Shown here one piece after another: positions 2,583-33,340 of a stretch of DNA of 64,000 nucleotides. This DNA comes from Escherichia coli (GTDB lineage: Bacteria; Pseudomonadota; Gammaproteobacteria; Enterobacterales; Enterobacteriaceae): the NCBI RefSeq assembly GCF_044647545.1, contig NZ_CP172818.1. The stretch is one strand, 5' to 3'. Made by a program: the position numbers and the translations under genes. Below the pieces are notes generated by a model. The model did no database searches. It was not told where the DNA came from and saw only the letters and a list, made by a program, of their open reading frames with translations. Position 1 is the first letter of the stretch, and each line of letters starts with the position of its first letter.

Positions 2583-3301
2583 CCGAGTTACCAATCGACG
2601 AAAACACGCCACGTATTTTGATCGTGGAAGATGAACCGAAGCTGGGGCAGTTACTCATTGATTATCTGCGTGCTGCGAGCTATGCGCCGACGCTTATCAG
2701 CCACGGCGATCAGGTACTGCCATATGTGCGCCAGACACCACCGGATCTGATCCTGTTGGATCTGATGCTCCCTGGCACCGATGGCCTGACGTTGTGTCGG
2801 GAGATTCGTCGTTTTTCTGACATTCCGATCGTGATGGTGACAGCAAAAATCGAAGAGATCGACCGCCTGCTCGGGCTGGAGATTGGCGCAGATGACTACA
2901 TCTGCAAACCGTACAGCCCACGGGAAGTGGTAGCGCGCGTCAAAACCATTTTGCGCCGTTGCAAACCGCAGCGTGAGTTGCAGCAACAGGATGCTGAAAG
3001 CCCGTTGATTATCGACGAAGGTCGTTTTCAGGCTTCATGGCGCGGAAAAATGCTTGACCTGACGCCTGCGGAATTTCGTCTGCTGAAAACGCTCTCTCAT
3101 GAACCAGGAAAAGTGTTCTCCCGCGAGCAGTTGCTGAACCATCTTTATGACGACTACCGCGTAGTAACCGACCGCACCATCGACAGCCACATTAAAAACC
3201 TGCGCCGCAAGCTGGAATCTCTCGACGCCGAACAGTCATTTATCCGCGCCGTTTACGGCGTCGGTTACCGCTGGGAAGCCGACGCCTGCCGCATCGTTTA
3301 A
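2579..3301 (+). CDS. baeR: OmpR-family response regulator BaeR
   Basis: 240 aa; receiver domain (ILIVEDEP ... [11 protein letters not shown]) plus winged-helix C-terminus; start overlaps baeS stop. Confidence 0.93.
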
Positions 3302-3480
3302 CATTTTTACCTGCCGGAGAAGGCATTCACGCCACATCCGGCAGCATTATCCCGCGCATTGTCGGCTATCTGACATTATCTCTCCGCCCTGGCAAGCACC
3401 TGAAAATCGCTCATACTTTAATCGGCAAACAGTCCTTTTAGATGCTGTTTTCGATACGCAATTTCAATCAAGGAGTCATT

Positions 3481-3813
3481 ATGGCTGGTTGGTTTGAACT
3501 CAGTAAGAGCAGTGATAATCAATTCCGGTTTGTGCTAAAAGCGGGCAATGGTGAGACTATCCTCACCAGCGAGCTGTATACCTCAAAAGCCTCTGCGGAA
3601 AAGGGCATCGCGTCGGTACGTAGCAACAGCCCGCAAGAAGAACGCTATGAGAAAAAAACGGCAAGCAACGGCAAATTCTATTTCAATCTGAAAGCCGCCA
3701 ATCATCAAATTATCGGCTCCAGCCAGATGTACGCCACCGCGCAATCTCGTGAAACCGGAATTGCCTCCGTTAAAGCCAATGGCACAAGCCAGACGGTAAA
3801 AGATAATACGTAA
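3481..3813 (+). CDS. yegP: DUF1508/UPF0339 family protein YegP
   Basis: 110 aa from ATG at 3481, preceded by AGGAG RBS; internally duplicated ~50-aa module; the longer ORF start at 3442 lacks an RBS. Confidence 0.8.
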   Translation: MAGWFELSKSSDNQFRFVLKAGNGETILTSELYTSKASAEKGIASVRSNSPQEERYEKKTASNGKFYFNLKAANHQIIGSSQMYATAQSRETGIASVKANGTSQTVKDNT

Positions 3814-3855
3814 TGACGATGCCGGGCGTGGGTTGTTGGCGTCCGGCTTTATATC

Positions 3856-4550
<695 letters not shown>

Positions 4551-4653
4551 AACCCGCCGATTGCGCTACAATGCCCGCCCTTAAAGTGGGGGCACTCCCC
4601 TAACCGCTTCATCAGGTGAAGCGGATCTGACCTGTCATCAGAACGAGAGAATT

Positions 4654-6190: not shown

Positions 6191-6348
6191 ATGCATAAGC
6201 CCTATCTCTGGTAACCGTCTTCCATTGACCACATCGATAGAATCCTCCTTCATAGCACGATGCCTTTCACTTATCGGCATCGTGCTCCCACAGGTTCCGG
6301 CTACGCACAGCCAGAACGCGCATGTTTGACGCTTACCAAAAAATATTC

Positions 6349-6666
6349 TCACTCTCCACATTTGAATGTCAGACGAGCGACGCCATGTAATCCTGCACCT
6401 TCTGTCTTCAGGTCAACTATCTGCATTTTTTTTCCCTGAGTAACACAGAAATGAGCTGCATCATTTTTTACTATATTTTCTGCACCAGAAATTCTGCCCC
6501 TGGCTAAAGAAGCTTCGGCTTCGGTGTAGTATTGGTTATCGAGTTTACGCTGAATATTACTTTTATATGCAAGGCCAAATTTACCGATACTTGTCTCATC
6601 ATTATGCACAGCACAACCAGACATAAGAAAAACACTAATTAATGATATAGCAGCTATCTTTTTCAT
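6349..6666 (-). CDS. yegR: Small lipoprotein YegR
   Basis: 105 aa from internal Met (MKKIAAISLISVFLMSGC: signal peptide plus lipobox); ORF-track start at 6726 is a likely over-extension. Confidence 0.75.
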   Translation of the reverse strand: MKKIAAISLISVFLMSGCAVHNDETSIGKFGLAYKSNIQRKLDNQYYTEAEASLARGRISGAENIVKNDAAHFCVTQGKKMQIVDLKTEGAGLHGVARLTFKCGE

Positions 6667-22941: not shown

Positions 22942-23745
22942 ATGACCGAATTTACCACTCTTCTTCAGCAAGGAAATGCCTGGTTCTTCATCCCCAGCGC
23001 CATCTTACTTGGTGCGCTTCATGGCCTGGAACCAGGGCACTCAAAAACGATGATGGCGGCGTTTATCATCGCCATCAAAGGCACCATTAAACAGGCGGTG
23101 ATGCTCGGACTGGCAGCAACCATTTCGCATACCGCGGTGGTCTGGTTGATTGCCTTTGGCGGGATGGTAATCAGCAAACGTTTTACTGCTCAATCTGCAG
23201 AACCGTGGCTCCAGTTGATTTCCGCGGTGATCATTATTGGCACCGCGTTCTGGATGTTCTGGCGTACCTGGCGCGGCGAACGCAACTGGCTGGAGAATAT
23301 GCACGAGCACGAGCACGAGCACGAGCATGATCATGAGCATCATCACCATCACGAACATGGCGAGTATCAGGATGCCCATGCACGAGCCCATTCCAATGAC
23401 ATTAAAAGACGATTTGATGGTAGAGAGGTCACCAACTGGCAAATTTTGTTATTTGGCTTAACCGGTGGCCTTATCCCCTGCCCGGCAGCAATTACCGTGC
23501 TGTTGATTTGCATTCAGTTGAAAGCCCTGACACTGGGCGCAACACTGGTCGTCAGTTTTAGCATTGGCCTGGCGTTAACGCTTGTCACCGTAGGCGTTGG
23601 CGCAGCAATCAGCGTTCAGCAGGTCGCAAAACGCTGGAGCGGATTTAACACTCTCGCTAAACGCGCCCCCTATTTTTCCAGTCTGTTGATTGGCTTAGTT
23701 GGTGTGTATATGGGCGTACATGGCTTCATGGGCATAATGCGATAA
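22942..23745 (+). CDS. rcnA: Nickel/cobalt efflux protein RcnA with His-rich cytoplasmic loop
   Basis: 267 aa; TM helices plus HEHEHEHEHDHEHHHHHEH loop encoded by hexanucleotide repeat. Confidence 0.92.
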   Translation: MTEFTTLLQQGNAWFFIPSAILLGALHGLEPGHSKTMMAAFIIAIKGTIKQAVMLGLAATISHTAVVWLIAFGGMVISKRFTAQSAEPWLQLISAVIIIGTAFWMFWRTWRGERNWLENMHEHEHEHEHDHEHHHHHEHGEYQDAHARAHSNDIKRRFDGREVTNWQILLFGLTGGLIPCPAAITVLLICIQLKALTLGATLVVSFSIGLALTLVTVGVGAAISVQQVAKRWSGFNTLAKRAPYFSSLLIGLVGVYMGVHGFMGIMR

Positions 23746-23963
23746 CTCAATCCTTTAGGCTTGCATGTTATCTTCAGCCCAGGATGATTCTTAAATCAGC
23801 TATTTCCGCTGACTCTCTGCTCGCTAAGGATGCTTTTAGAGCATCCTTTCATTTACACTTTTTACGAAATCATGGGATCACTAACAAAATATCGCTTGTC
23901 AGTTATATTGTATGGCAGGAAAGATATGCGACTGATATTACAGATCCCCAAAGTGGAGAGTTT

Positions 23964-24302
23964 ATGACCATTAAAAATAAGATGTTGCTGGGTGCGCTTT
24001 TGCTGGTTACCAGTGCCGCCTGGGCCGCACCAGCCACCGCGGGTTCGACCAATACCTCGGGAATTTCTAAGTATGAGTTAAGCAGTTTCATTGCTGACTT
24101 TAAGCATTTCAAACCAGGCGATACCGTCCCAGAGATGTACCGCACCGATGAGTACAACATTAAGCAGTGGCAGTTACGTAACCTGCCCGCGCCTGATGCC
24201 GGGACGCACTGGACCTATATGGGTGGCGCGTACGTGTTGATCAGCGACACCGACGGTAAAATCATTAAAGCCTACGACGGTGAGATTTTTTATCATCGCT
24301 AA
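23964..24302 (+). CDS. rcnB: Periplasmic Ni/Co homeostasis protein RcnB (YohN)
   Basis: 112 aa from MTIKNKMLLGALLLVTSAAWA (signal peptide); ORF-track start at 23784 over-extended. Confidence 0.85.
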   Translation: MTIKNKMLLGALLLVTSAAWAAPATAGSTNTSGISKYELSSFIADFKHFKPGDTVPEMYRTDEYNIKQWQLRNLPAPDAGTHWTYMGGAYVLISDTDGKIIKAYDGEIFYHR

Positions 24303-24335
24303 AAAAAAGCCCCCTCGAAGAGAGGGGGGAATGCA
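24303..24335. terminator. Hairpin terminator between convergent rcnB and yehA
   Basis: AAAAAAAAGCCCCCTCGAAGAGAGGGGGGAA: GC stem flanked by A-run upstream and T-rich sequence downstream; could function in both directions. Confidence 0.6.
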
Positions 24336-24383
24336 GACACCTTAATATTTTTATTATTAGCCACTTGCTCGTCTTGCTTGTTA

Positions 24384-25418
24384 TTAGTCGTATTTCACGT
24401 TGATTAATGCGGTTGCCTCCAGTGCGCCAGATTTAACTTTGTTTGTATCGTAGACGTAGTAACTGGCTGTTATCGGAATTGAAACCGTTGTATCTGTAAG
24501 TTTTGACTTCGCCGCAACTTCCTTTAAATTTGTATATCCTTTACTGCTGTTAGTGATATTTAAAAGTGTGACTGGCGAACCATTACTTTCAAGAATAAAT
24601 CCTACGCCATTATCTTCCGCACCTTTCAGTATTGTGTTGCTGTTGGTTAACAAGTCAGAACTTGATAAATACACCTGCATTTTCCGTGATGTTTGATTTT
24701 GTTGACCTAATAAATTTTTACAACGCAGAATAATATCCCCTTGTTTACTATTTATTGTTGCTTTGTTACCTGTGGCTGGTAATTGTGAAACGGGAATACT
24801 GTCTAAAGTAATTAATAAATCGTCCGGTTTGCAGGTTGTGGTTATCGGGTTGTATGACAATGTCAGATTAAAGGAATAGACACCTGCATTTTGTGCCAAT
24901 GCATTTCTGTAGCTATTTACACATGCATCCCATGACTTGCCACCTAATAAACACAGTAGAAATTGTACTGCGGCACTCCCGCGTGTCGATGATGAAGCAC
25001 TGGATAATGTCGCAACACCATTAATCATCACTGAACCGCCGCCCCCCGCAGAAACATTCACTTTTGCATTACTGGCCGCAGGTGTCACCGTAACTGAATA
25101 ACCACTGGTGAAACTGGTCTGATTATTTGACAACGTGATGTTGTTTTTATTGGTCCATTCAAAATGTAAATTTAATTTTATGGTATCGTTATAAAGTCCA
25201 ACAATAATATCCGACGGGCTCATAGGGGTGATAGTATTTGTACTTACGCATGACGAATCATTAAAATTATGCTCATATGTCGCCATTTGTGTTTGAGTAA
25301 GTGCAAAATCCCCCTGAACAACCAAGTTGTGCTGAACAGATAACTCACTATAACATGCCGCATAGCTCACAGGCATAACCATCATCATTAATATAAATAG
25401 CATTATGCGAATTTCCAT
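24384..25418 (-). CDS. yehA: Fimbrial adhesin-like protein YehA (chaperone-usher pathway)
   Basis: 344 aa; signal peptide; last gene of yehDCBA. Confidence 0.85.
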   Translation of the reverse strand: MEIRIMLFILMMMVMPVSYAACYSELSVQHNLVVQGDFALTQTQMATYEHNFNDSSCVSTNTITPMSPSDIIVGLYNDTIKLNLHFEWTNKNNITLSNNQTSFTSGYSVTVTPAASNAKVNVSAGGGGSVMINGVATLSSASSSTRGSAAVQFLLCLLGGKSWDACVNSYRNALAQNAGVYSFNLTLSYNPITTTCKPDDLLITLDSIPVSQLPATGNKATINSKQGDIILRCKNLLGQQNQTSRKMQVYLSSSDLLTNSNTILKGAEDNGVGFILESNGSPVTLLNITNSSKGYTNLKEVAAKSKLTDTTVSIPITASYYVYDTNKVKSGALEATALINVKYD

Positions 25419-25433
25419 AGAACCACCTGACTA

Positions 25434-27928
25434 TTACTGGCAAATATAATTTCTACTTTCATCAATCTCTTTACCGAAGGTGATTGTGCATGAAAGTCCT
25501 TGTTGCTTATCAATTGCTACATTAACCGATGGCGGTACTTCATTGGTGCGAATAAATAACTGGCTTCCCTGGCCGACAACACCAATATTATGACCATGGA
25601 TATCATTGACTTCATAACCAAACGTTAATGGTTGCCCATCCGCTCTTAACGCTTTTATAAACCATGGCTTGCGCTGATCGGTATCAAAATTAACCAGTAC
25701 AACCGCGCCGCGATAAGGGGCGGCAATTTTCCGGTTGCCACGTAATTCTGCTTCGCTATCGCTTTGCGACACATCCAGCATCAGGTGATTTTCCCGATAA
25801 GGTGTCATTCCGTCGTATACCACCACTCCATTACGGTTTGTTGTGCGATATTTTTGCCCATTGACATAAGCATCTTTAATTCCTGGCGCATTCATTACAG
25901 CAAACGTTTCGGAAAGACGGTTCGCCAGATTAACGCCACCCGACCAGGCGACAATGCCCCCTGAAACACTGGCTCCAGCCTGTCGATAAGTACTCGACTG
26001 ACTATAACTGCCATTCACCGTTGCCACCGGCGCGTTCCAGGTTAAATTAGCTCCAGCTGTCGTTTCATTTCCCTGATGCTGATGACTCAGGTTGACCCCA
26101 TAGTTAAATTGATCCCGGCTTCCAACGGTTCCCGATAATCCCGTATTATTTGAGGCAAAACCCTGATCATCAAACGTCGTTGAGTTAGACATATATATTT
26201 GCCGACGAGGCGTCGTAGCGTCATCACCCCAATCAAAGGGAATCGATATAAAAATATTAAAACGTTTCTCTTCATGATGATTCTCGTCATAAGCCTGGCT
26301 TGCCGCGAGGGTATAGCTTATCCGTCGCAGGTTGTTGGAATAACTCAACTGATAATCCTTACTGCTGCCGCTACGCCCCCAGTAATCTCGCCATAACGTA
26401 CTTAAGGACACAGAACCCCAGCCTTCTGGCAATGACTGGCTCATATTGGCAGAAAAGCTATTTTTACGGCCAAAATCGTTCTGGTAATAATCGGCAATGT
26501 CATAGATATCGTTTTCATCACGGCGATATTTATCTTTATTGTTTGCCCAAACGTGATCGTTAAATGTCCGGTAATCACGCGACGAATAACGCCAGGCCGC
26601 CAGACCAAAACGCGTCGACGTTTGGCTCACAAATTTGTTGTAGGCAATTTGATAACTTTGCCCGTCAAACACATCGCCGTTGTCTTGTTTACTATGCGAC
26701 TTCGTGGCATCGACGGAAATGGCACCAATGCGTGTATTCCAGCCAGTCCCCAAAGTGAACGCGTAATAATTATTCGCGACCATCGATCCGCCATACAGCG
26801 TCAATAAGTTATTAAAACCATACTGATAACCCGCCTGAACAAAATCACTTTGTTTGCTCGCCCCTTCAATATGGCTACGACCTGCCGCAAAATCATATTT
26901 CGACACGCCGGGTTGCAGCATATTCGGCACCGCTGCATAAGGCACCAGATAGGTGGTTACCGAACCGTCCGCCTCTTTCACGCTGACATCAAGATCTGCT
27001 CCACCACCGGCCAACTGCAAATCTGTAATCGCAAACGGGCCAGGAGGAACCTCTTTCTGATAAACCACAAAACCGTTCTGTTCAATAGTTACCAGCGCGT
27101 TACTCTGAGCAATCCCCTGCACCCGTGGAGTAAAATTTTGTTTCGAGTTAGGCAACATCTGCATATCACGAAACAACCGCACACCGCTGAAGCGAACAGA
27201 ATCAAAAATATCGCTTGATGTGTACATATCACCCACGCGAAGCGTGCCGAGAAGTTGGGCAAATCCACGTTCCAGATACAGGGTATTGCTTTTCCACACC
27301 CCTGGATTGCTATTTGTTTTACTGAAACTGGCATCAGAATGCAGTTGCCACCCCAGTAAGTTTAACCCGCTGTTAAAACGTACATATGTACTCTTGCTAT
27401 TACCCGACGCTTTATAGTCGCTGTAATACTGACTCACATAATAAGAGGTATAAAACGCATTAATACCCCGCTCCCAGTTTTCCGGTGGAACATAGCCACT
27501 TTCCAGTTCTTCCACCCACGCCTGCGGGACACTGAAATCGAGACGAAAAACTCCGATATCCCAGGTATAGCTCCCCCCTGAACAAGTTGCTCAAATGTTA
27601 AACATTGCTTACCGCTGGCAAAGTTATCGGTATTAATGCCTAACCGCTTGATAATTTCCCTTGATATACATGTTTCTTGCAGGTTGTCTTTAACAATAAT
27701 CTCATATTTCCCGCGCCATTGCTTATTGACATAAATATCGATGTCATACTGCCCCGGCAAGGGTTGATTATCATCAAGACGAATATTTGCAACCTGCTGG
27801 TCTTTCATTCCACCTATCATAAAATGGGTATCAAAGGTTTCTTCAGCTGCATAAGCTTCAATGCCGAGCAATAACGCTACGATTGCTGATGCAAGTGGGG
27901 TCATTCTCAACATAGGCAGCTCCTGCAA
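25434..27928 (-). pseudogene. yehB: Outer-membrane fimbrial usher YehB, disrupted by a single-base frameshift in a homopolymer (or sequencing error)
   Basis: Two ORFs in different frames (27434..27928 N-terminal fragment, 25434..27515 remainder); frame switches at C6 run 27573-27578 (minus-strand G6); restoring one G gives continuous ...FEQLVQGG-SYTWDIGVFRLDFSVPQAWVEELESGY... Confidence 0.8.
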
Positions 27929-28603
27929 TTAAATTTTGTCACTAATATAGTTGCCATGGTCATCGATAATGGTCAGATGCCAGTTATTCGCATTATTACT
28001 TTTGACATTAATACTCTGACTTTCTAAGGGGGCAATCATAATAGTTTCATAATTGACTTTGACATTATTAGCTTTGACATCCGAAATCGTCACCCAATTT
28101 GCTGAGTCATTTTTTATCACCAATCCATTGCCACTGCGATTTACCAGTAACTTTTTAAATGTCGCTTTATTTACCGGTGCAATACCCGCAGGCCGGTAAA
28201 ACAATTTGATTCTGTTTTGCATTGCAAATTTCAGTGCATTCTTGCCCTCTTGCTCTGGACTATTTGGTGGAATATCCAGAACATTCAGATAAAAAATGCT
28301 CTCTTTATTAGTGGGCAGTTTATTCGGCATAATTTTGATTTTTACTTGCTGCCCGGAATTTGCCCCTATTTTTGCCACTGGTGGCGTTAACATGAAAGGA
28401 ACCTGAATTTTTTCTGGTGGTAACGACGTATCGCCATCATCAATCCACGCCTGCAGCAGCGAAGAACGGTTTCCCTGGTTCATCAACTGCACCATCACTT
28501 CTTTATTTTCTGCCGGGTAAATAATGCGCGTCCCATAGATAACAATTCCGGCATGCGCAGGAAGGACCATAGAAGAAATGAGTAAAGCTAATAATCCTTT
28601 CAT
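27929..28603 (-). CDS. yehC: Periplasmic fimbrial chaperone YehC (PapD-like)
   Basis: 224 aa; signal peptide; PapD-like chaperone. Confidence 0.88.
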   Translation of the reverse strand: MKGLLALLISSMVLPAHAGIVIYGTRIIYPAENKEVMVQLMNQGNRSSLLQAWIDDGDTSLPPEKIQVPFMLTPPVAKIGANSGQQVKIKIMPNKLPTNKESIFYLNVLDIPPNSPEQEGKNALKFAMQNRIKLFYRPAGIAPVNKATFKKLLVNRSGNGLVIKNDSANWVTISDVKANNVKVNYETIMIAPLESQSINVKSNNANNWHLTIIDDHGNYISDKI

Positions 28604-28683
28604 CTTAATGCCTCTTAAATTAAAAGGCCGCCATGGGGATAGCGGCCATGTTTATTACCTGGAGAAACTTGAAATTTTATTTA

Positions 28684-29226
28684 TTAATCCTGCGCCACAC
28701 GCATAACCAGAGAAGATAACACATCACCTGATTGCACTGAATTATCTGTCAGCTTCAGGTATTTTGCTTTAAACGGAATAGCATATTGACCTTCCGCTGT
28801 TTTATAACTCTCAATGTTAAAAGGTGCAGAAACATCCAGGACATCGCTGTTATCACCTAAATAGAGATAGTACCCCACGGTATCGTTGCTACTGGCTATC
28901 GCCTTATCGTTTCCGGTTATTTTCTCGTTGGTAATCAACGAGAGTTTTACACCAGCAACTTCTTTCGGACAGCTAATTTTTAACATGCTGCTGGTTACAC
29001 CGACTGCATCATCATAGGTCGAGTATTTAGCTTTACCTTCAAAGACAGTGGTTGGTACAGTTGGCATATTAATACTTACTGAATCGCCACCCGCTTCGAA
29101 TTTACACGGAGATTCTGCAATATTCCCTTTAATGGTTAATGTTCCGGTATCAACGTCTGCGGCAAATACCCCAGCGCTCATAAAAAAAGAAGAAAAGACA
29201 GCGGCAGCAATAATTGAACGTTTCAT
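28684..29226 (-). CDS. yehD: Fimbrial major subunit-like protein YehD
   Basis: 180 aa; signal peptide (MKRSIIAAAVFSSFFMSAGVFA), pilin fold with conserved Cys pair. Confidence 0.88.
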   Translation of the reverse strand: MKRSIIAAAVFSSFFMSAGVFAADVDTGTLTIKGNIAESPCKFEAGGDSVSINMPTVPTTVFEGKAKYSTYDDAVGVTSSMLKISCPKEVAGVKLSLITNEKITGNDKAIASSNDTVGYYLYLGDNSDVLDVSAPFNIESYKTAEGQYAIPFKAKYLKLTDNSVQSGDVLSSLVMRVAQD

Positions 29227-29521
29227 AATATGTTCCTTAATAAAATTTATTTTTTGGTTGTTAAGAGTCTGTATCTCTTGGAAACAAATTTCTCACATCA
29301 AAAAAGTTGCCGCAATGTAAACATATTGTTTTATTGATTTAAAACAAATTAACTATTGCAATATAAATACAACAAATACTTAAGCATATTAAATATTTAT
29401 CACATCTATTAATTAATGCAGATTTTTGTAAATGATATTATTGATATCAATAAAAAAGCTGAAATCATTCACACGAATGATTTCAGCTTTCTAAATCCGA
29501 TTAAAAAACCAGGGTGGCAAA

Positions 29522-29803
29522 TTAATCGTAGCGATTTAACACGATTCGACGTTTGCTATCGCTACCTGCAACAACCACTTCTGTCGTTACACCTTTGACT
29601 GGCGAAGAAACCTGATGACGGGTATCAACATCATACGTTAACTGACCACAATGCTGTTGAGGTTGTCCATTAACCATAGCCATACTGCATGTTGGGGGAC
29701 TGATCCTGCCATTAATCGTTAATGTGGCAGTCTGTGAAGAGAACGCGGGAGAAGCCATTCCATAGGCAAGAAAAATAATTCCTGACAGCCAGTACTTATT
29801 CAT
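29522..29803 (-). CDS. yehE: Small secreted protein YehE (DUF2574)
   Basis: 93 aa; signal peptide; upstream of yehD in AT-rich region; hairpin terminator at ~29458-29490. Confidence 0.75.
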   Translation of the reverse strand: MNKYWLSGIIFLAYGMASPAFSSQTATLTINGRISPPTCSMAMVNGQPQQHCGQLTYDVDTRHQVSSPVKGVTTEVVVAGSDSKRRIVLNRYD

Positions 29804-30065
29804 TGAACGTTATCCCTGTAGTAAAGGTTATGCCTGGATAGAATGAGTGCATAACAAACTATAGCTGTACATCCACTACACAGCCACGAAGGATGATAAT
29901 GAAGCATTGCCTGTACGATCAATCGACTTTATAGAGTTTCGGACGAAGGTCCGCAGAATATTTGCAGCATTAAATAAGTGTTCATTAATGCGGCAAAAAC
30001 AAATACACCGCATCAATGTAACATCTCTGCGGTGTATGAAAAGCAACCAAAAAGGTTAATACGCG

Positions 30066-31175
30066 TTAGACCGCGCGGAAGGAAATCTCGCCAGGAATGA
30101 CTTCTCCCTGCCAATAAAGCTGGGCTGCAACGCGGTCAGCCAGCTGGCGGTAGATAGCGGTAAATTCGCTCTCCGGACGGCTGATAACCGTTGGCGTGCC
30201 TTTATCGAGATCTTCACGTAAGGAGATGTGTAACGGCATCTGCCCCAGCAACTGCGTGTGGTATTTCTCGGCCAGTTTCTCTGCACCACCGGTACCGAAA
30301 ATCGGTTCATGGTGACCACAGTTACTGCAAATATGCACACTCATGTTCTCGACAATACCGAGCACCGGAACCTCGACTTTCTCGAACATCACAATGCCTT
30401 TTTTCGCATCGATCAACGCAATGTCCTGCGGGGTGGTGACCACTACCGCGCCAGTTACTGGAATGTTTTGTGCCAGTGTCAATTGAATGTCACCAGTGCC
30501 TGGCGGCATATCAAGCACCAGATAGTCGAGATCCGGCCACAAGGTTTCCTGCAACATTTGCATTAACGCCTTGCTCGCCATCGGACCACGCCACACCATC
30601 GCATTGTCGTCAGTGACCAGATAACCAATTGAATTGGTTGCAAGGCCATGAGACATAATCGGTGCCATGTGGGTACCGTCCGGCGAAGTTGGACGCTGAT
30701 TTTCTGCACCCAGCATGGTGGGTATTGATGGGCCGTAGATATCGGCGTCCAGAATGCCGACTTTCGCCCCTTCCGCCGCGAGTGCCAACGCCAGGTTTAC
30801 CGCCGTGGAAGATTTACCCACGCCGCCTTTACCGGAACTGACCGCAATGATGTTCTTCACGCCATTAATACCCGGCTGATTCTTCACGCGTTTTAAGGTG
30901 GCGATATTGTGCGACAGTTTCCAGTCGATAGCTTTCGCCCCGGTGATACGAAGCAGTTCGGCGCTACATTGCTCTTTTAACTCTTCGAACGCGCTATGCC
31001 AGACGAATGGCATAACCAGTTCCACATGCAACGTGTCGTCCATCCAGGCGACATGGTGCAACGCTTTCAGCGTGGTGAGGTTATGCTTCAGGGTTGGGTG
31101 CTGAAAATTGGCCAGTGTCCCGGCGACCATTGCGCGCAAGGCTTCTGGTGATTTGGCCTGGGATTGTTCGTTCAT
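30066..31175 (-). CDS. mrp: Fe-S cluster carrier ATPase Mrp/ApbC
   Basis: 369 aa from MNEQSQAKSPEALRAM; deviant Walker A (SGKGGVGKSS), C-terminal CxxC; divergent from metG. Confidence 0.92.
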   Translation of the reverse strand: MNEQSQAKSPEALRAMVAGTLANFQHPTLKHNLTTLKALHHVAWMDDTLHVELVMPFVWHSAFEELKEQCSAELLRITGAKAIDWKLSHNIATLKRVKNQPGINGVKNIIAVSSGKGGVGKSSTAVNLALALAAEGAKVGILDADIYGPSIPTMLGAENQRPTSPDGTHMAPIMSHGLATNSIGYLVTDDNAMVWRGPMASKALMQMLQETLWPDLDYLVLDMPPGTGDIQLTLAQNIPVTGAVVVTTPQDIALIDAKKGIVMFEKVEVPVLGIVENMSVHICSNCGHHEPIFGTGGAEKLAEKYHTQLLGQMPLHISLREDLDKGTPTVISRPESEFTAIYRQLADRVAAQLYWQGEVIPGEISFRAV

Positions 31176-31306
31176 CCCGACTCCTTTTTTGTATAGATAA
31201 ACCATCAGCTGATAGTTTACCTGAAGAATATAGAGAAGTACTTACTTAACATTTTCCCATTTGGTACTATCTAACCCCTTTTCACTATTAAGAAGTAATG
31301 CCTACT

Positions 31307-33340
31307 ATGACTCAAGTCGCGAAGAAAATTCTGGTGACGTGCGCACTGCCGTACGCTAACGGCTCAATCCACCTCGGCCATATGCTGGAGCACATCCAGG
31401 CTGATGTCTGGGTCCGTTACCAGCGAATGCGCGGCCACGAGGTCAACTTCATCTGCGCCGACGATGCCCACGGTACACCGATCATGCTGAAAGCTCAGCA
31501 GCTCGGTATCACCCCGGAGCAGATGATTGGCGAAATGAGTCAGGAGCATCAGACTGATTTCGCAGGCTTTAACATCAGCTATGACAACTATCACTCGACG
31601 CACAGTGAAGAGAACCGCCAGTTGTCAGAACTTATCTACTCTCGCCTGAAAGAAAACGGTTTTATTAAAAACCGCACTATTTCTCAGCTGTACGATCCGG
31701 AAAAAGGCATGTTCCTGCCGGACCGTTTTGTGAAAGGCACCTGCCCGAAATGTAAATCCCCGGATCAATACGGCGATAACTGCGAAGTCTGCGGCGCGAC
31801 CTACAGCCCGACTGAATTGATCGAGCCGAAATCGGTGGTTTCTGGCGCTACGCCGGTAATGCGTGATTCTGAACACTTCTTCTTTGATCTGCCCTCTTTC
31901 AGCGAAATGTTGCAGGCATGGACCCGCAGCGGTGCGTTGCAGGAGCAGGTGGCAAATAAAATGCAGGAGTGGTTTGAATCCGGCCTGCAACAGTGGGATA
32001 TCTCCCGCGACGCGCCGTACTTCGGTTTTGAAATTCCGAACGCGCCGGGTAAATATTTCTACGTCTGGCTGGATGCGCCGATTGGCTATATGGGTTCTTT
32101 CAAGAATCTGTGCGACAAGCGCGGCGACAGCGTAAGCTTCGATGAATACTGGAAGAAAGACTCCACCGCCGAGCTGTACCACTTCATCGGTAAAGATATT
32201 GTTTACTTCCACAGCCTGTTCTGGCCAGCAATGCTGGAAGGCAGCAACTTCCGCAAGCCGACCAACCTGTTTGTTCATGGCTATGTGACGGTGAACGGCG
32301 CGAAGATGTCTAAGTCTCGCGGTACCTTTATTAAGGCCAGCACCTGGCTGAATCATTTTGACGCCGACAGCCTGCGTTACTACTACACTGCGAAACTCTC
32401 TTCGCGCATTGATGATATCGATCTCAACCTGGAAGATTTCGTTCAGCGCGTGAATGCCGATATCGTTAACAAAGTGGTTAACCTGGCCTCTCGTAATGCG
32501 GGCTTTATCAACAAGCGTTTTGACGGCGTGCTGGCAAGCGAACTGGCTGACCCGCAGTTGTACAAAACCTTCACTGATGCCGCTGAAGTGATTGGTGAAG
32601 CGTGGGAAAGCCGCGAATTTGGTAAAGCAGTACGCGAAATCATGGCGCTGGCTGATCTGGCTAACCGCTATGTCGATGAACAGGCTCCGTGGGTGGTGGC
32701 AAAACAGGAAGGCCGCGATGCCGACCTGCAGGCAATTTGCTCAATGGGCATAAACCTGTTCCGCGTGCTGATGACTTACCTGAAGCCGGTACTGCCGAAA
32801 CTGACCGAGCGCGCAGAAGCATTCCTCAATACAGAACTGACCTGGGATGGTATCCAGCAACCGCTGCTGGGCCACAAAGTGAATCCGTTCAAAGCGCTGT
32901 ATAACCGCATCGATATGAAGCAGGTTGAAGCACTGGTGGAAGCGTCTAAAGAAGAAGTGAAAGCAGCTGCCGCGCCAATTACTGGCCCACTGGCAGATGA
33001 TCCGATTCAGGAAACCATCACCTTTGACGACTTCGCCAAAGTTGACCTGCGCGTGGCGCTGATCGAAAACGCAGAGTTTGTTGAAGGTTCTGACAAACTG
33101 CTGCGCCTGACGCTGGATCTCGGCGGTGAAAAACGCAATGTCTTCTCCGGCATTCGTTCTGCTTACCCGGATCCGCAGGCACTGATTGGTCGTCACACCA
33201 TTATGGTGGCTAACCTGGCACCACGTAAAATGCGCTTCGGTATCTCCGAAGGCATGGTGATGGCTGCCGGTCCTGGCGGGAAAGATATCTTCCTGCTAAG
33301 CCCGGATGCTGGTGCTAAACCGGGTCATCAGGTGAAATAA
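31307..33340 (+). CDS. metG: Methionyl-tRNA synthetase
   Basis: 677 aa from [28 protein letters not shown] (HIGH motif), KMSKS present, Zn knuckle CPKC...CEVC, C-terminal tRNA-binding domain. Confidence 0.95.

Follow-up and report, generated by a model that had tools for sequence, protein, structure and literature searches.

Gene content and base composition of the Yeh locus

The window, that is the whole 64-kb stretch of Escherichia coli DNA analysed here, carries the Yeh locus, the gamma4 chaperone-usher cluster of E. coli whose Salmonella equivalent is Stc. The gene order is apbC, yehE-D-C-B-A, rcnB and the position is as in K-12 (Table 1). Pfam matches to a Fimbrial domain (major pilin), PapD_N/C, PapC_N/Usher/PapC_C and a second Fimbrial domain at the C terminus of YehA make the cluster complete for a gamma4 Yeh/Stc system. 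Together with the RefSeq annotation, they bear out the gene identities of the original prediction, an earlier reading of this DNA. The four-gene yehDCBA architecture and its position are shared with the Yeh loci of K-12 and UPEC, and segments compared with K-12 have 92-100% nucleotide identity. The window differs from these loci by a frameshifted usher and by a K-12-type adhesin allele set in a non-K-12 background. Indeed, its yehA is 100% identical to that of the K-12 lineage, while the genome closest by flanking sequence has a different yehA allele.

Table 1. Features of the Yeh locus and of its borders, in window positions
Feature	Position	Strand	Evidence or remark
GC-rich hairpin and T8 after yehA	24310..24328	-	Terminator scan; -14.1 kcal/mol, z = -3.4; ends yehDCBA between convergent rcnB and yehA
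yehA, two-domain tip adhesin, 344 aa (YehD in UTI89 nomenclature)	24384..25418	-	Pfam Fimbrial, residues 184-344; NCBIfam PRK15252, 689 bits
yehB, usher	25434..27913	-	Split ORFs; aligned to intact 826-aa yehB; 1-nt deletion in G7 tract
yehC, periplasmic chaperone	27929..28603	-	Pfam PapD_N, PapD_C
GC-rich 9-bp stem-loop then UUUUAAUUU, between yehD and yehC	28626..28647	-	Terminator scan; -15.7 kcal/mol
yehD, major pilin	28684..29226	-	Pfam Fimbrial; NCBIfam YehD model matches below its curated cut-off
AT-rich yehD-yehE spacer	29227..29521	.	24.4% GC; matches K-12 H-NS-bound "promoter island"
Conserved module 5' of yehD, presumed promoter and leader	29227..29371	-	Identity comparison with Salmonella and Citrobacter
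Putative intrinsic terminator of yehE	29449..29492	-	16-bp perfect stem (18 bp in RNA), 4-nt loop, then UUUUUUAUU; covariation in 13 sequences
yehE, 93-aa secreted DUF2574 protein	29522..29803	-	Pfam, E = 1.4e-51
Candidate yehE promoter	29893..29922	-	TTGATC-N18-TATCAT; conserved in Salmonella and Citrobacter
apbC terminator hairpin and U-run	29995..30037 (hairpin near 30003-30037)	-	Folding; stem covaries across genera; divides apbC from yehE

The GC calculation confirms that the locus is AT-rich compared with its flanks: the region 24384-29803 has 41.8% GC against 51.2% in the remaining window and is the GC minimum among the 5.4-kb stretches of the 64 kb. The mean of the non-overlapping windows is 51.2% GC (sd 2.1), and the lowest of them has 46.8%. 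By gene, the GC content is 38.7% for yehA, 45.7% for yehB, 39.6% for yehC, 41.4% for yehD, 44.3% for yehE and 53.0% for apbC, and GC3 is 35-40% within the island versus 58-62% for rcnA, apbC and metG. The spacer between yehD and yehE is the most extreme part, and just one further 295-bp stretch of the window, in low-complexity junk at about 4040-4560, has 30% GC or less. The interval 29227-29521, described in the original prediction as covering also the spacer upstream of yehE, is AT-rich as claimed; it comprises the yehD-yehE spacer only, the yehE-upstream spacer being 29804-30065 with 40.1% GC.

The yehB frame, which had been flagged for correction, is broken by one missing base when aligned to intact yehB, with six G residues where other genomes have seven (C-run 27573-27578 on the plus strand). 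This allele occurs in 1 of 5262 E. coli genomes, annotated there as frameshifted, so phase variation at the G-tract was rejected. Provided that the sequence is correct, the broken usher frame means that the pilus cannot be assembled. On the other hand, the frameshift may be a sequencing error, since the junk sequence at about 4040-4560 of the same window is homopolymeric. Calling the Yeh fimbriae of this strain "non-functional" thus hinges on one homopolymer base in an assembly that has homopolymer junk elsewhere.

The locus is nearly universal in E. coli (5423 of 5426 genomes). Furthermore, it lies between apbC and rcnB, with the same gene order and equally AT-rich, in E. albertii, other Escherichia, Salmonella arizonae and Citrobacter. 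This shared position and composition in three genera argue for an ancient island whose AT-richness predates the Escherichia/Salmonella/Citrobacter split and thus gives no evidence of recent transfer. The horizontal acquisition that the original prediction had read from base composition is, as a recent event, contradicted by these data, by the finding of no tRNA, integrase or flanking repeats at the island, and by Wurpel et al., who describe Yeh as core-associated and ancestral (PMC3559732).

H-NS silencing, proposed as well, has been documented in K-12. Panyukov and Ozoline (2013; PMC3661553, Table 1) list the yehD/yehE spacer, as entry 2190229_357, among 78 H-NS-bound "promoter islands" and give H-NS binding for it from the data sets of Kahramanoglou and Oshima. 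The yehDCBA genes belong to the H-NS regulon and rise 3.6-fold under SlyA overexpression (PMC5797941), and the K-12 Yeh locus is within a static protein-occupancy domain (bioRxiv 2024.06.20.599902). These data pertain to K-12, whose spacer is 92% identical to that of the window. While the model of Panyukov and Ozoline ties promoter islands to foreign genes, the Yeh locus is here ancestral to three genera. Matches to the high-affinity H-NS motif TCGATAAATT with up to two mismatches are not enriched in the island (10 of the 85 window matches within 8.5% of the sequence), an uninformative result.

The hairpin downstream of yehE

The original prediction had reported a perfect 12-bp inverted repeat followed by a T-run 3' of yehE. 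The repeat and the T-run are there, and the arms are longer, with a perfect 16 bp (29455-29470 and 29475-29490) around a 4-nt loop that reads GUGU in RNA. In the sense orientation the hairpin starts 31 nt past the yehE stop codon (TAA), and it is likewise placed 3' of yehE in 12 other sequences. It ranks first among inverted repeats across the window. The fold of the minus-strand RNA has an energy of -23.1 kcal/mol (z = -8.0), a value that none of 200 shuffles equals.

Comparison of 13 distinct sequences from Escherichia, Salmonella and Citrobacter indicates that pairing is kept through compensatory changes, with 96.2% of cells paired versus 32-50% when partners are slid. Five hairpin pairs are changed on both sides (19 cells), the observed score is reached by 0 of 500 shuffles, and 12 G-U cells are consistent with an RNA of the yehE sense strand. 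Furthermore, two related loci (L024 and L025) have an unrelated or partly unrelated hairpin 3' of their DUF2574 gene. Judged by this covariation, the pairing is preserved by selection and the hairpin is a genuine terminator-type structure.

As in canonical enterobacterial Rho-independent terminators, a very stable stem-loop near the stop codon is preceded by an A-tract and followed at once by a U-run; the yehE stem differs from these in being unusually long (16-18 bp) and AT-rich. Only 5 of the 16 perfect pairs are G-C pairs, two of them (G-C and C-G) near the base and flanked by A-U, and three of the six U's of the U-run are able to pair with an upstream AAA; for these reasons termination efficiency is possibly below 100%. 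The consensus terminator scan, which looks for a short GC-rich stem, did not report this hairpin because maximal extension of the stem absorbs part of the U-run, and direct folding was used instead. The supplementary tables of two published E. coli Term-seq studies contain no entries for yehE or yehD, probably owing to poor expression of the locus, and searching 23000-31500 against Rfam, with a permissive E-value, gave zero matches, which places the hairpin and the yehD leader outside known RNA families. The sequence and placement of the hairpin fit best with a Rho-independent terminator for yehE, ordinary but well conserved.

Transcription units of the locus

The minus strand comprises three successive units, apbC, monocistronic yehE and yehDCBA, each closed by a hairpin. 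The terminator candidate 3' of yehE, which the original prediction had placed inside the fimbrial operon, thus ends a separate unit; the stem-loop internal to the operon is the one between yehD and yehC, which had gone unlisted.

The yehD module, 145 bp long, has 74-78% identity to Salmonella and Citrobacter versus 57% for yehD itself; it is the best-conserved part of the island, above any gene, with strong purifying selection on the spacer's proximal half. It holds an invariant repeat, TTGTTTTA-N6-TAAAACAA, at 29326-29347 and GTTTACATTGCGGCAAC at 29306-29322. By eye, we found no clear sigma-70 -10 element in the module and nothing convincing in the conserved leader for sigma-70, sigma-E, CRP, FNR, CpxR or mar-box patterns. 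A tiny upstream ORF in the leader (MFTLRQLF) was rejected since conservation does not extend to its start codon. In O157 Sakai, the Yeh-like (yhl) operon is without a DUF2574 gene, and its upstream region is without similarity to the module.

These features most probably reflect an ancestral Yeh/Stc locus made of a separate yehE unit with its own terminator and of an H-NS-silenced yehDCBA operon transcribed from its own promoter. In this model, transcription of the 282-nt yehE would begin at its conserved promoter, which sigma-S polymerase binds in K-12; the 16-18-bp hairpin would then form and release would take place at the U-run, largely insulating the silenced fimbrial operon from upstream transcription. 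The yehDCBA genes would start at their own promoter within the proximal, conserved 145 bp of the spacer. According to the literature, H-NS coats the spacer and the operon remains cryptic unless H-NS is antagonised, for instance by SlyA.

The original prediction took the opposite view, in which yehEDCBA is one operon and the hairpin an internal attenuator; such an attenuator would set high YehE over low YehDCBA or act as a gate into yehD. This organization is in keeping with the adjacency and common orientation of yehE and yehD in Escherichia, Salmonella and Citrobacter, and with the label "yehEDCBA operon" used in a preprint (bioRxiv 2024.06.20.599902). Furthermore, a Ptet::yehE-yehDCBA construct, with Ptet upstream of yehE, produces fimbriae only upon induction (PMC7098969), which implies that some polymerase reads through the hairpin. 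However, the 222-nt spacer that follows the terminator holds the yehD module, more conserved than the genes of the island. GCA_032071645.1 has a divergent DUF2574 gene, at another place in the chromosome, and still retains the module as well as a hairpin belonging to that gene; the gene is likewise divergent from the Yeh-like operon in loci L025 and L026. Elsewhere too, yehE has its own promoter and terminator, and the operon is defined as the four genes yehDCBA in the SlyA transcriptome (PMC5797941) and in the structural literature (PMC12778044). A single five-gene operon is, on balance, unlikely.

It is far less probable that the palindrome works mainly as DNA, bound by a dimeric regulator or by an antagonist of H-NS (SlyA, for example), rather than by terminating transcription as RNA. 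Across genera, the upper stem, ATCATT / AATGAT, hardly varies, and TTAGAAAGCTGA, at the 5' base of the hairpin, is a candidate SlyA site that matches 10 of the 12 positions of the consensus TTAGCAAGCTAA (PMC5797941); the rise of yehDCBA under SlyA overexpression also fits this function. On the other hand, the lower stem varies freely in sequence while its pairing is kept, including through G-U pairs that are A-C mismatches on the other strand, and the U-run is conserved. In L024 and L025, moreover, the hairpins differ in sequence and occupy the same position. Finally, a functionless chance palindrome, conceivable in a low-complexity spacer of 24% GC where short AT palindromes are common, is already refuted by its first rank among the inverted repeats of the 64 kb, its folding (z -8; 0/200 shuffles) and its covariation across three genera, and has virtually no credence left.

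The original observation has little significance beyond annotation: the locus was known, as were its AT-richness and silencing by H-NS. What re-examination adds, besides the age of the AT-richness and the doubt over the usher frameshift, is the probable division into separate units, with yehE, and its covariation-supported terminator, outside the fimbrial operon.

Within yehDCBA, attention turns to the stem-loop that follows the major pilin gene. Stem-loops 3' of major-subunit genes are known from chaperone-usher operons, where they serve differential expression of the pap/fim type. At the like position, a GC-rich hairpin separates yehD from yehC in each of the 9 related loci compared. Sequences are unrelated between loci and the T-run is often absent, which sets these hairpins apart from the pap/fim type in that the T-run belongs to some lineages only. 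The yehD-yehC hairpin may thus be an mRNA stabiliser or a partial terminator and, as in other fimbrial operons, would probably raise the major pilin relative to chaperone, usher and adhesin.

YehE and its association with Yeh-type operons

The yehE gene keeps a length of 93 codons in three genera, with differences concentrated at third codon positions. A sigma-S RNA polymerase ChIP-seq peak assigned to yehE covers the candidate promoter (PMC4447067). The N-terminal 42 residues of YehE are homologous to the N terminus of YehD (hhalign, 92% probability). A profile search of PDB sequences with YehE returned chance-level matches only, and the AlphaFold2 model, built on a 14-sequence alignment, has a mean pLDDT of 48. 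The YehE variant P0027, considered as a second locus, was rejected as such because it sits at the same apbC locus.

YehE has a signal peptide, a donor-strand-like N terminus and an invariant C terminus (IVLNRYD), and lacks most of the pilin fold. These features would suit a pilin-derived "mini-subunit" that, separately controlled by sigma-S, might modulate Yeh pilus assembly, for instance by titrating the chaperone or by capping or terminating a growing fibre; we put this forward as a speculative and quite improbable role. If it were true, the conserved terminator would serve to uncouple the modulator from the structural genes. The conserved region upstream of yehD and the lasting linkage of yehE to the pilus genes provide modest leads on how Yeh and Stc are switched on. 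Indeed, yehE adjoins Yeh-type operons in three different arrangements, each time with its own promoter and terminator.

A terminator-like hairpin downstream of yehE

The top-ranked inverted repeat of the entire window begins 31 nt after the stop codon of yehE, and the corresponding minus-strand RNA folds into an 18-bp stem (-23.1 kcal/mol, z = -8.0), behind which comes UUUUUUAUU. The hairpin was missed by a consensus terminator scan because the extension of the stem uses up part of the U-run, and no Rfam family matched it. At its 5' base, TTAGAAAGCTGA (29481-29492, minus strand) agrees at 10 of 12 positions with the SlyA consensus TTAGCAAGCTAA.

The hairpin position was gathered from five E. 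coli lineages and from nine further loci recovered by a YehE profile scan with one genome per species (Escherichia clades, E. albertii, E. whittamii, Salmonella enterica subsp. arizonae and two Citrobacter). Within the ungapped alignment of the 13 distinct sequences, standard pairs occupy 96.2% of cells, versus 32-50% after the partner has been shifted by 1-3 columns. Two-sided changes occur at five stem positions (19 cells), such as CTG/CAG, CCG/CGG, CCA/TGG, CTT/AAG and CCTCT/AGAGG, and the observed covariation was matched by none of 500 shuffles. Furthermore, 12 cells hold G-U pairs, of which one Citrobacter version is mostly composed; these would be A-C mismatches on the opposite strand and point to an RNA of the yehE sense strand. 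Downstream of two distant DUF2574 (YehE family) genes, one locus carries a hairpin of unrelated sequence with a U-run (L024) and the other a hairpin whose tail, UUUCU, is weaker (L025). We conclude that the yehE hairpin is most probably the Rho-independent terminator of yehE, to all appearances an intrinsic terminator of the ordinary kind, for which the comparative support is unusually good.

The gene yehE itself is real, with a length of 93 codons in three genera and differences falling mostly at the third codon position (for instance 10, 13 and 38 at positions 1, 2 and 3 relative to E. albertii). Only a tiny family surrounds YehE, with 30 representative clusters in a set of 1.84 billion proteins. 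Residues 1-42, comprising the signal peptide and TATLTINGRISPPTC, align to the N-terminus of YehD (profile-profile, 92% probability, E = 7e-7), the C-terminal IVLNRYD is invariant, and the structure model was of too poor a quality for use. That DUF2574 genes accompany Yeh-type operons in three different arrangements hints at a connection in function, as yet speculative.

A probable transcription-unit boundary between yehE and yehDCBA

The original prediction took the hairpin for an internal terminator of the fimbrial operon, possibly attenuating transcription into yehD. The hairpin itself holds, but five findings indicate that it marks a boundary between transcription units rather than an internal position. 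Upstream, apbC has its own terminator and yehE a candidate promoter (see table), whose -10 element reads TACCAT, TACAAT or TATAAT in Salmonella and Citrobacter and which is covered by the sigma-S RNA polymerase ChIP-seq peak assigned to yehE by Peano et al. (PMC4447067). Downstream, no part of the island is better conserved across Escherichia, Salmonella and Citrobacter than the 145 nt preceding the yehD start codon (29227-29371): their 74-78% identity between the window and Salmonella or Citrobacter exceeds that of yehD (57%), yehE (62-66%) and yehC (64-72%) and approaches that of the core gene apbC (82-83%). Neither a known regulator nor a clear sigma-70 promoter could be assigned to this module. 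In GCA_032071645.1, a Yeh-like four-gene operon sits elsewhere in the chromosome with a DUF2574 gene divergent from it; this gene retains a terminator-like hairpin of its own, and the upstream module is preserved at the pilin gene. Finally, the operon is taken as yehDCBA in publications (PMC5797941; PMC12778044). Read-through past the hairpin is possible; Yeh fimbriae were obtained from a Ptet fusion in front of yehE, only when induced (PMC7098969).

Features of the yeh locus by window position
Feature	Position	Strand	Remarks
Inverted repeat of the yehE hairpin	29455-29470 / 29475-29490	minus	perfect 16 bp, 4-nt loop
apbC terminator hairpin	30003-30037		covarying; own terminator of apbC
Promoter-like TTGATC-N18-TATCAT upstream of yehE	29893-29922		conserved in Salmonella and Citrobacter
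Invariant 8-bp inverted repeat TTGTTTTA-N6-TAAAACAA	29326-29347		in the yehD upstream module
GTTTACATTGCGGCAAC	29306-29322		in the yehD upstream module
GC-rich hairpin between yehD and yehC	28626-28647		-15.7 kcal/mol, followed by UUUUAAUUU
Hairpin with T8	24310-24328		closes the operon against convergent rcnB

The stem-loop that does lie inside the operon is the GC-rich one between yehD and yehC. A GC-rich hairpin occupies the yehD-yehC position in all nine related loci (L007-L015, three genera), with unrelated sequences and with a T-run in some lineages only, several lacking it. In fimbrial operons, the gene for the major subunit is usually followed by a stem-loop that favours the pilin over the assembly proteins, and the placement of this hairpin would fit that arrangement.

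In E. coli strain 11202 (L006, locus 2657-3990), the yehD-yehE spacer carries an IS5 insertion, which parts the region of the yehE terminator from the module ahead of yehD. In GCA_032071645.1 (L025/L026, ~6330-6420), a long (CTGCTT)n hexanucleotide tandem repeat directly follows the DUF2574 terminator hairpin and is broken by an assembly gap in L025.

Composition and age of the island

The window is a piece of E. coli chromosome. In near-identical genomes, the RefSeq gene order is thiM, rcnR, rcnA, rcnB, yehA-yehB-yehC-yehD-yehE-apbC (minus strand), metG, and Pfam identifies a two-domain adhesin (YehA), a PapC-type usher (YehB), a PapD-type chaperone (YehC), a pilin (YehD), a DUF2574 protein (YehE) and a ParA-type protein (ApbC). 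The gene names and coordinates first proposed are correct. The predicted AT-richness relative to the flanks is likewise borne out, with 41.8% GC in 24384-29803 versus 51.2% in the remaining window. This is the lowest-GC 5.4-kb stretch of the 64 kb (other windows: mean 51.2%, sd 2.1, minimum 46.8%), and at third codon positions the yeh genes have 35-40% GC versus 58-62% in rcnA, apbC and metG. The yehD-yehE spacer (29227-29521) falls to 24.4%, a value approached elsewhere in the window only by an artefactual low-complexity block near 4040-4560; the spacer 5' of yehE (29804-30065) has 40.1%.

The observation as such is confirmed; its interpretation, horizontal acquisition and H-NS silencing included, is supported in part. 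The yeh locus and its silencing are already known, with H-NS binding and silencing on record for K-12: the yehD/yehE spacer is among 78 H-NS-bound 'promoter islands' in K-12 (PMC3661553), SlyA overproduction raised yehDCBA 3.6-fold in a study that lists it as bound by H-NS and refers to Korea et al. 2010 for its H-NS repression (PMC5797941), and the locus falls in a static extended protein-occupancy domain (bioRxiv 2024.06.20.599902). Matches to the high-affinity H-NS motif (up to 2 mismatches) are not enriched in the island, which makes up 8.5% of the sequence and holds 10 of the 85 matches in the window, a result that says little either way. Recent acquisition is contradicted by the presence of the island in 5423 of 5426 complete E. 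coli genomes, by its apbC-rcnB position in every recovered Escherichia, Salmonella arizonae and Citrobacter locus, and by the lack of a tRNA or bordering repeats at the island. In each of these loci its GC is 41-43% versus 52-55% for apbC and metG; its AT-richness is a maintained property and no trace of recent arrival. Wurpel et al. likewise concluded that the island is not recent (PMC3559732).

The yehB frameshift and the yehA allele

Intact yehB carries a G7 run (CAG GGG GGG AGC), reduced in the window to G6, which splits the usher after ~113 codons. The G6 allele occurs in one of 5262 genomes matching an 80-bp probe, where the gene is annotated as frameshifted, and this rarity argues against phase variation at the tract. 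Over 25500-31100, the G-tract base and one SNP are all that separates the window from WP5-S18-ESBL-08, its closest relative. The 4040-4560 block, with a G-run of ~30, several A-runs of 20-30 and one T-run, has the look of an artefact of assembly or sequencing and makes other homopolymer lengths in the window less trustworthy; at its position WP5-S18-ESBL-08, as the closest complete genome, carries the toxin-antitoxin genes parD and parE, flanked by yegP and yegQ. For these reasons, a sequencing error in yehB is a serious possibility. Loss of yehB recurs independently in other lineages: one E. coli draft genome (L018) has an usher broken elsewhere in the gene (products of 169 and 649 aa), and in another (L017) no usher gene was called.

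Over 23300-31100, the window is identical to WP5-S18-ESBL-08 except for the G-tract base, one SNP and a cassette at 24348-25517 (yehA and the 3' end of yehB), which carries ~590 differences and is 100% identical to K-12-type yehA. The two adhesin alleles share 47% amino-acid identity, confined to the C-terminal pilin domain. This pattern suggests that the adhesin allele was replaced by recombination, with putative breakpoints in the rcnB-yehA spacer and at the end of yehB. Such replacement may account for one study's finding of the adhesin in about half of genomes despite a nearly universal operon (PMC12778044).
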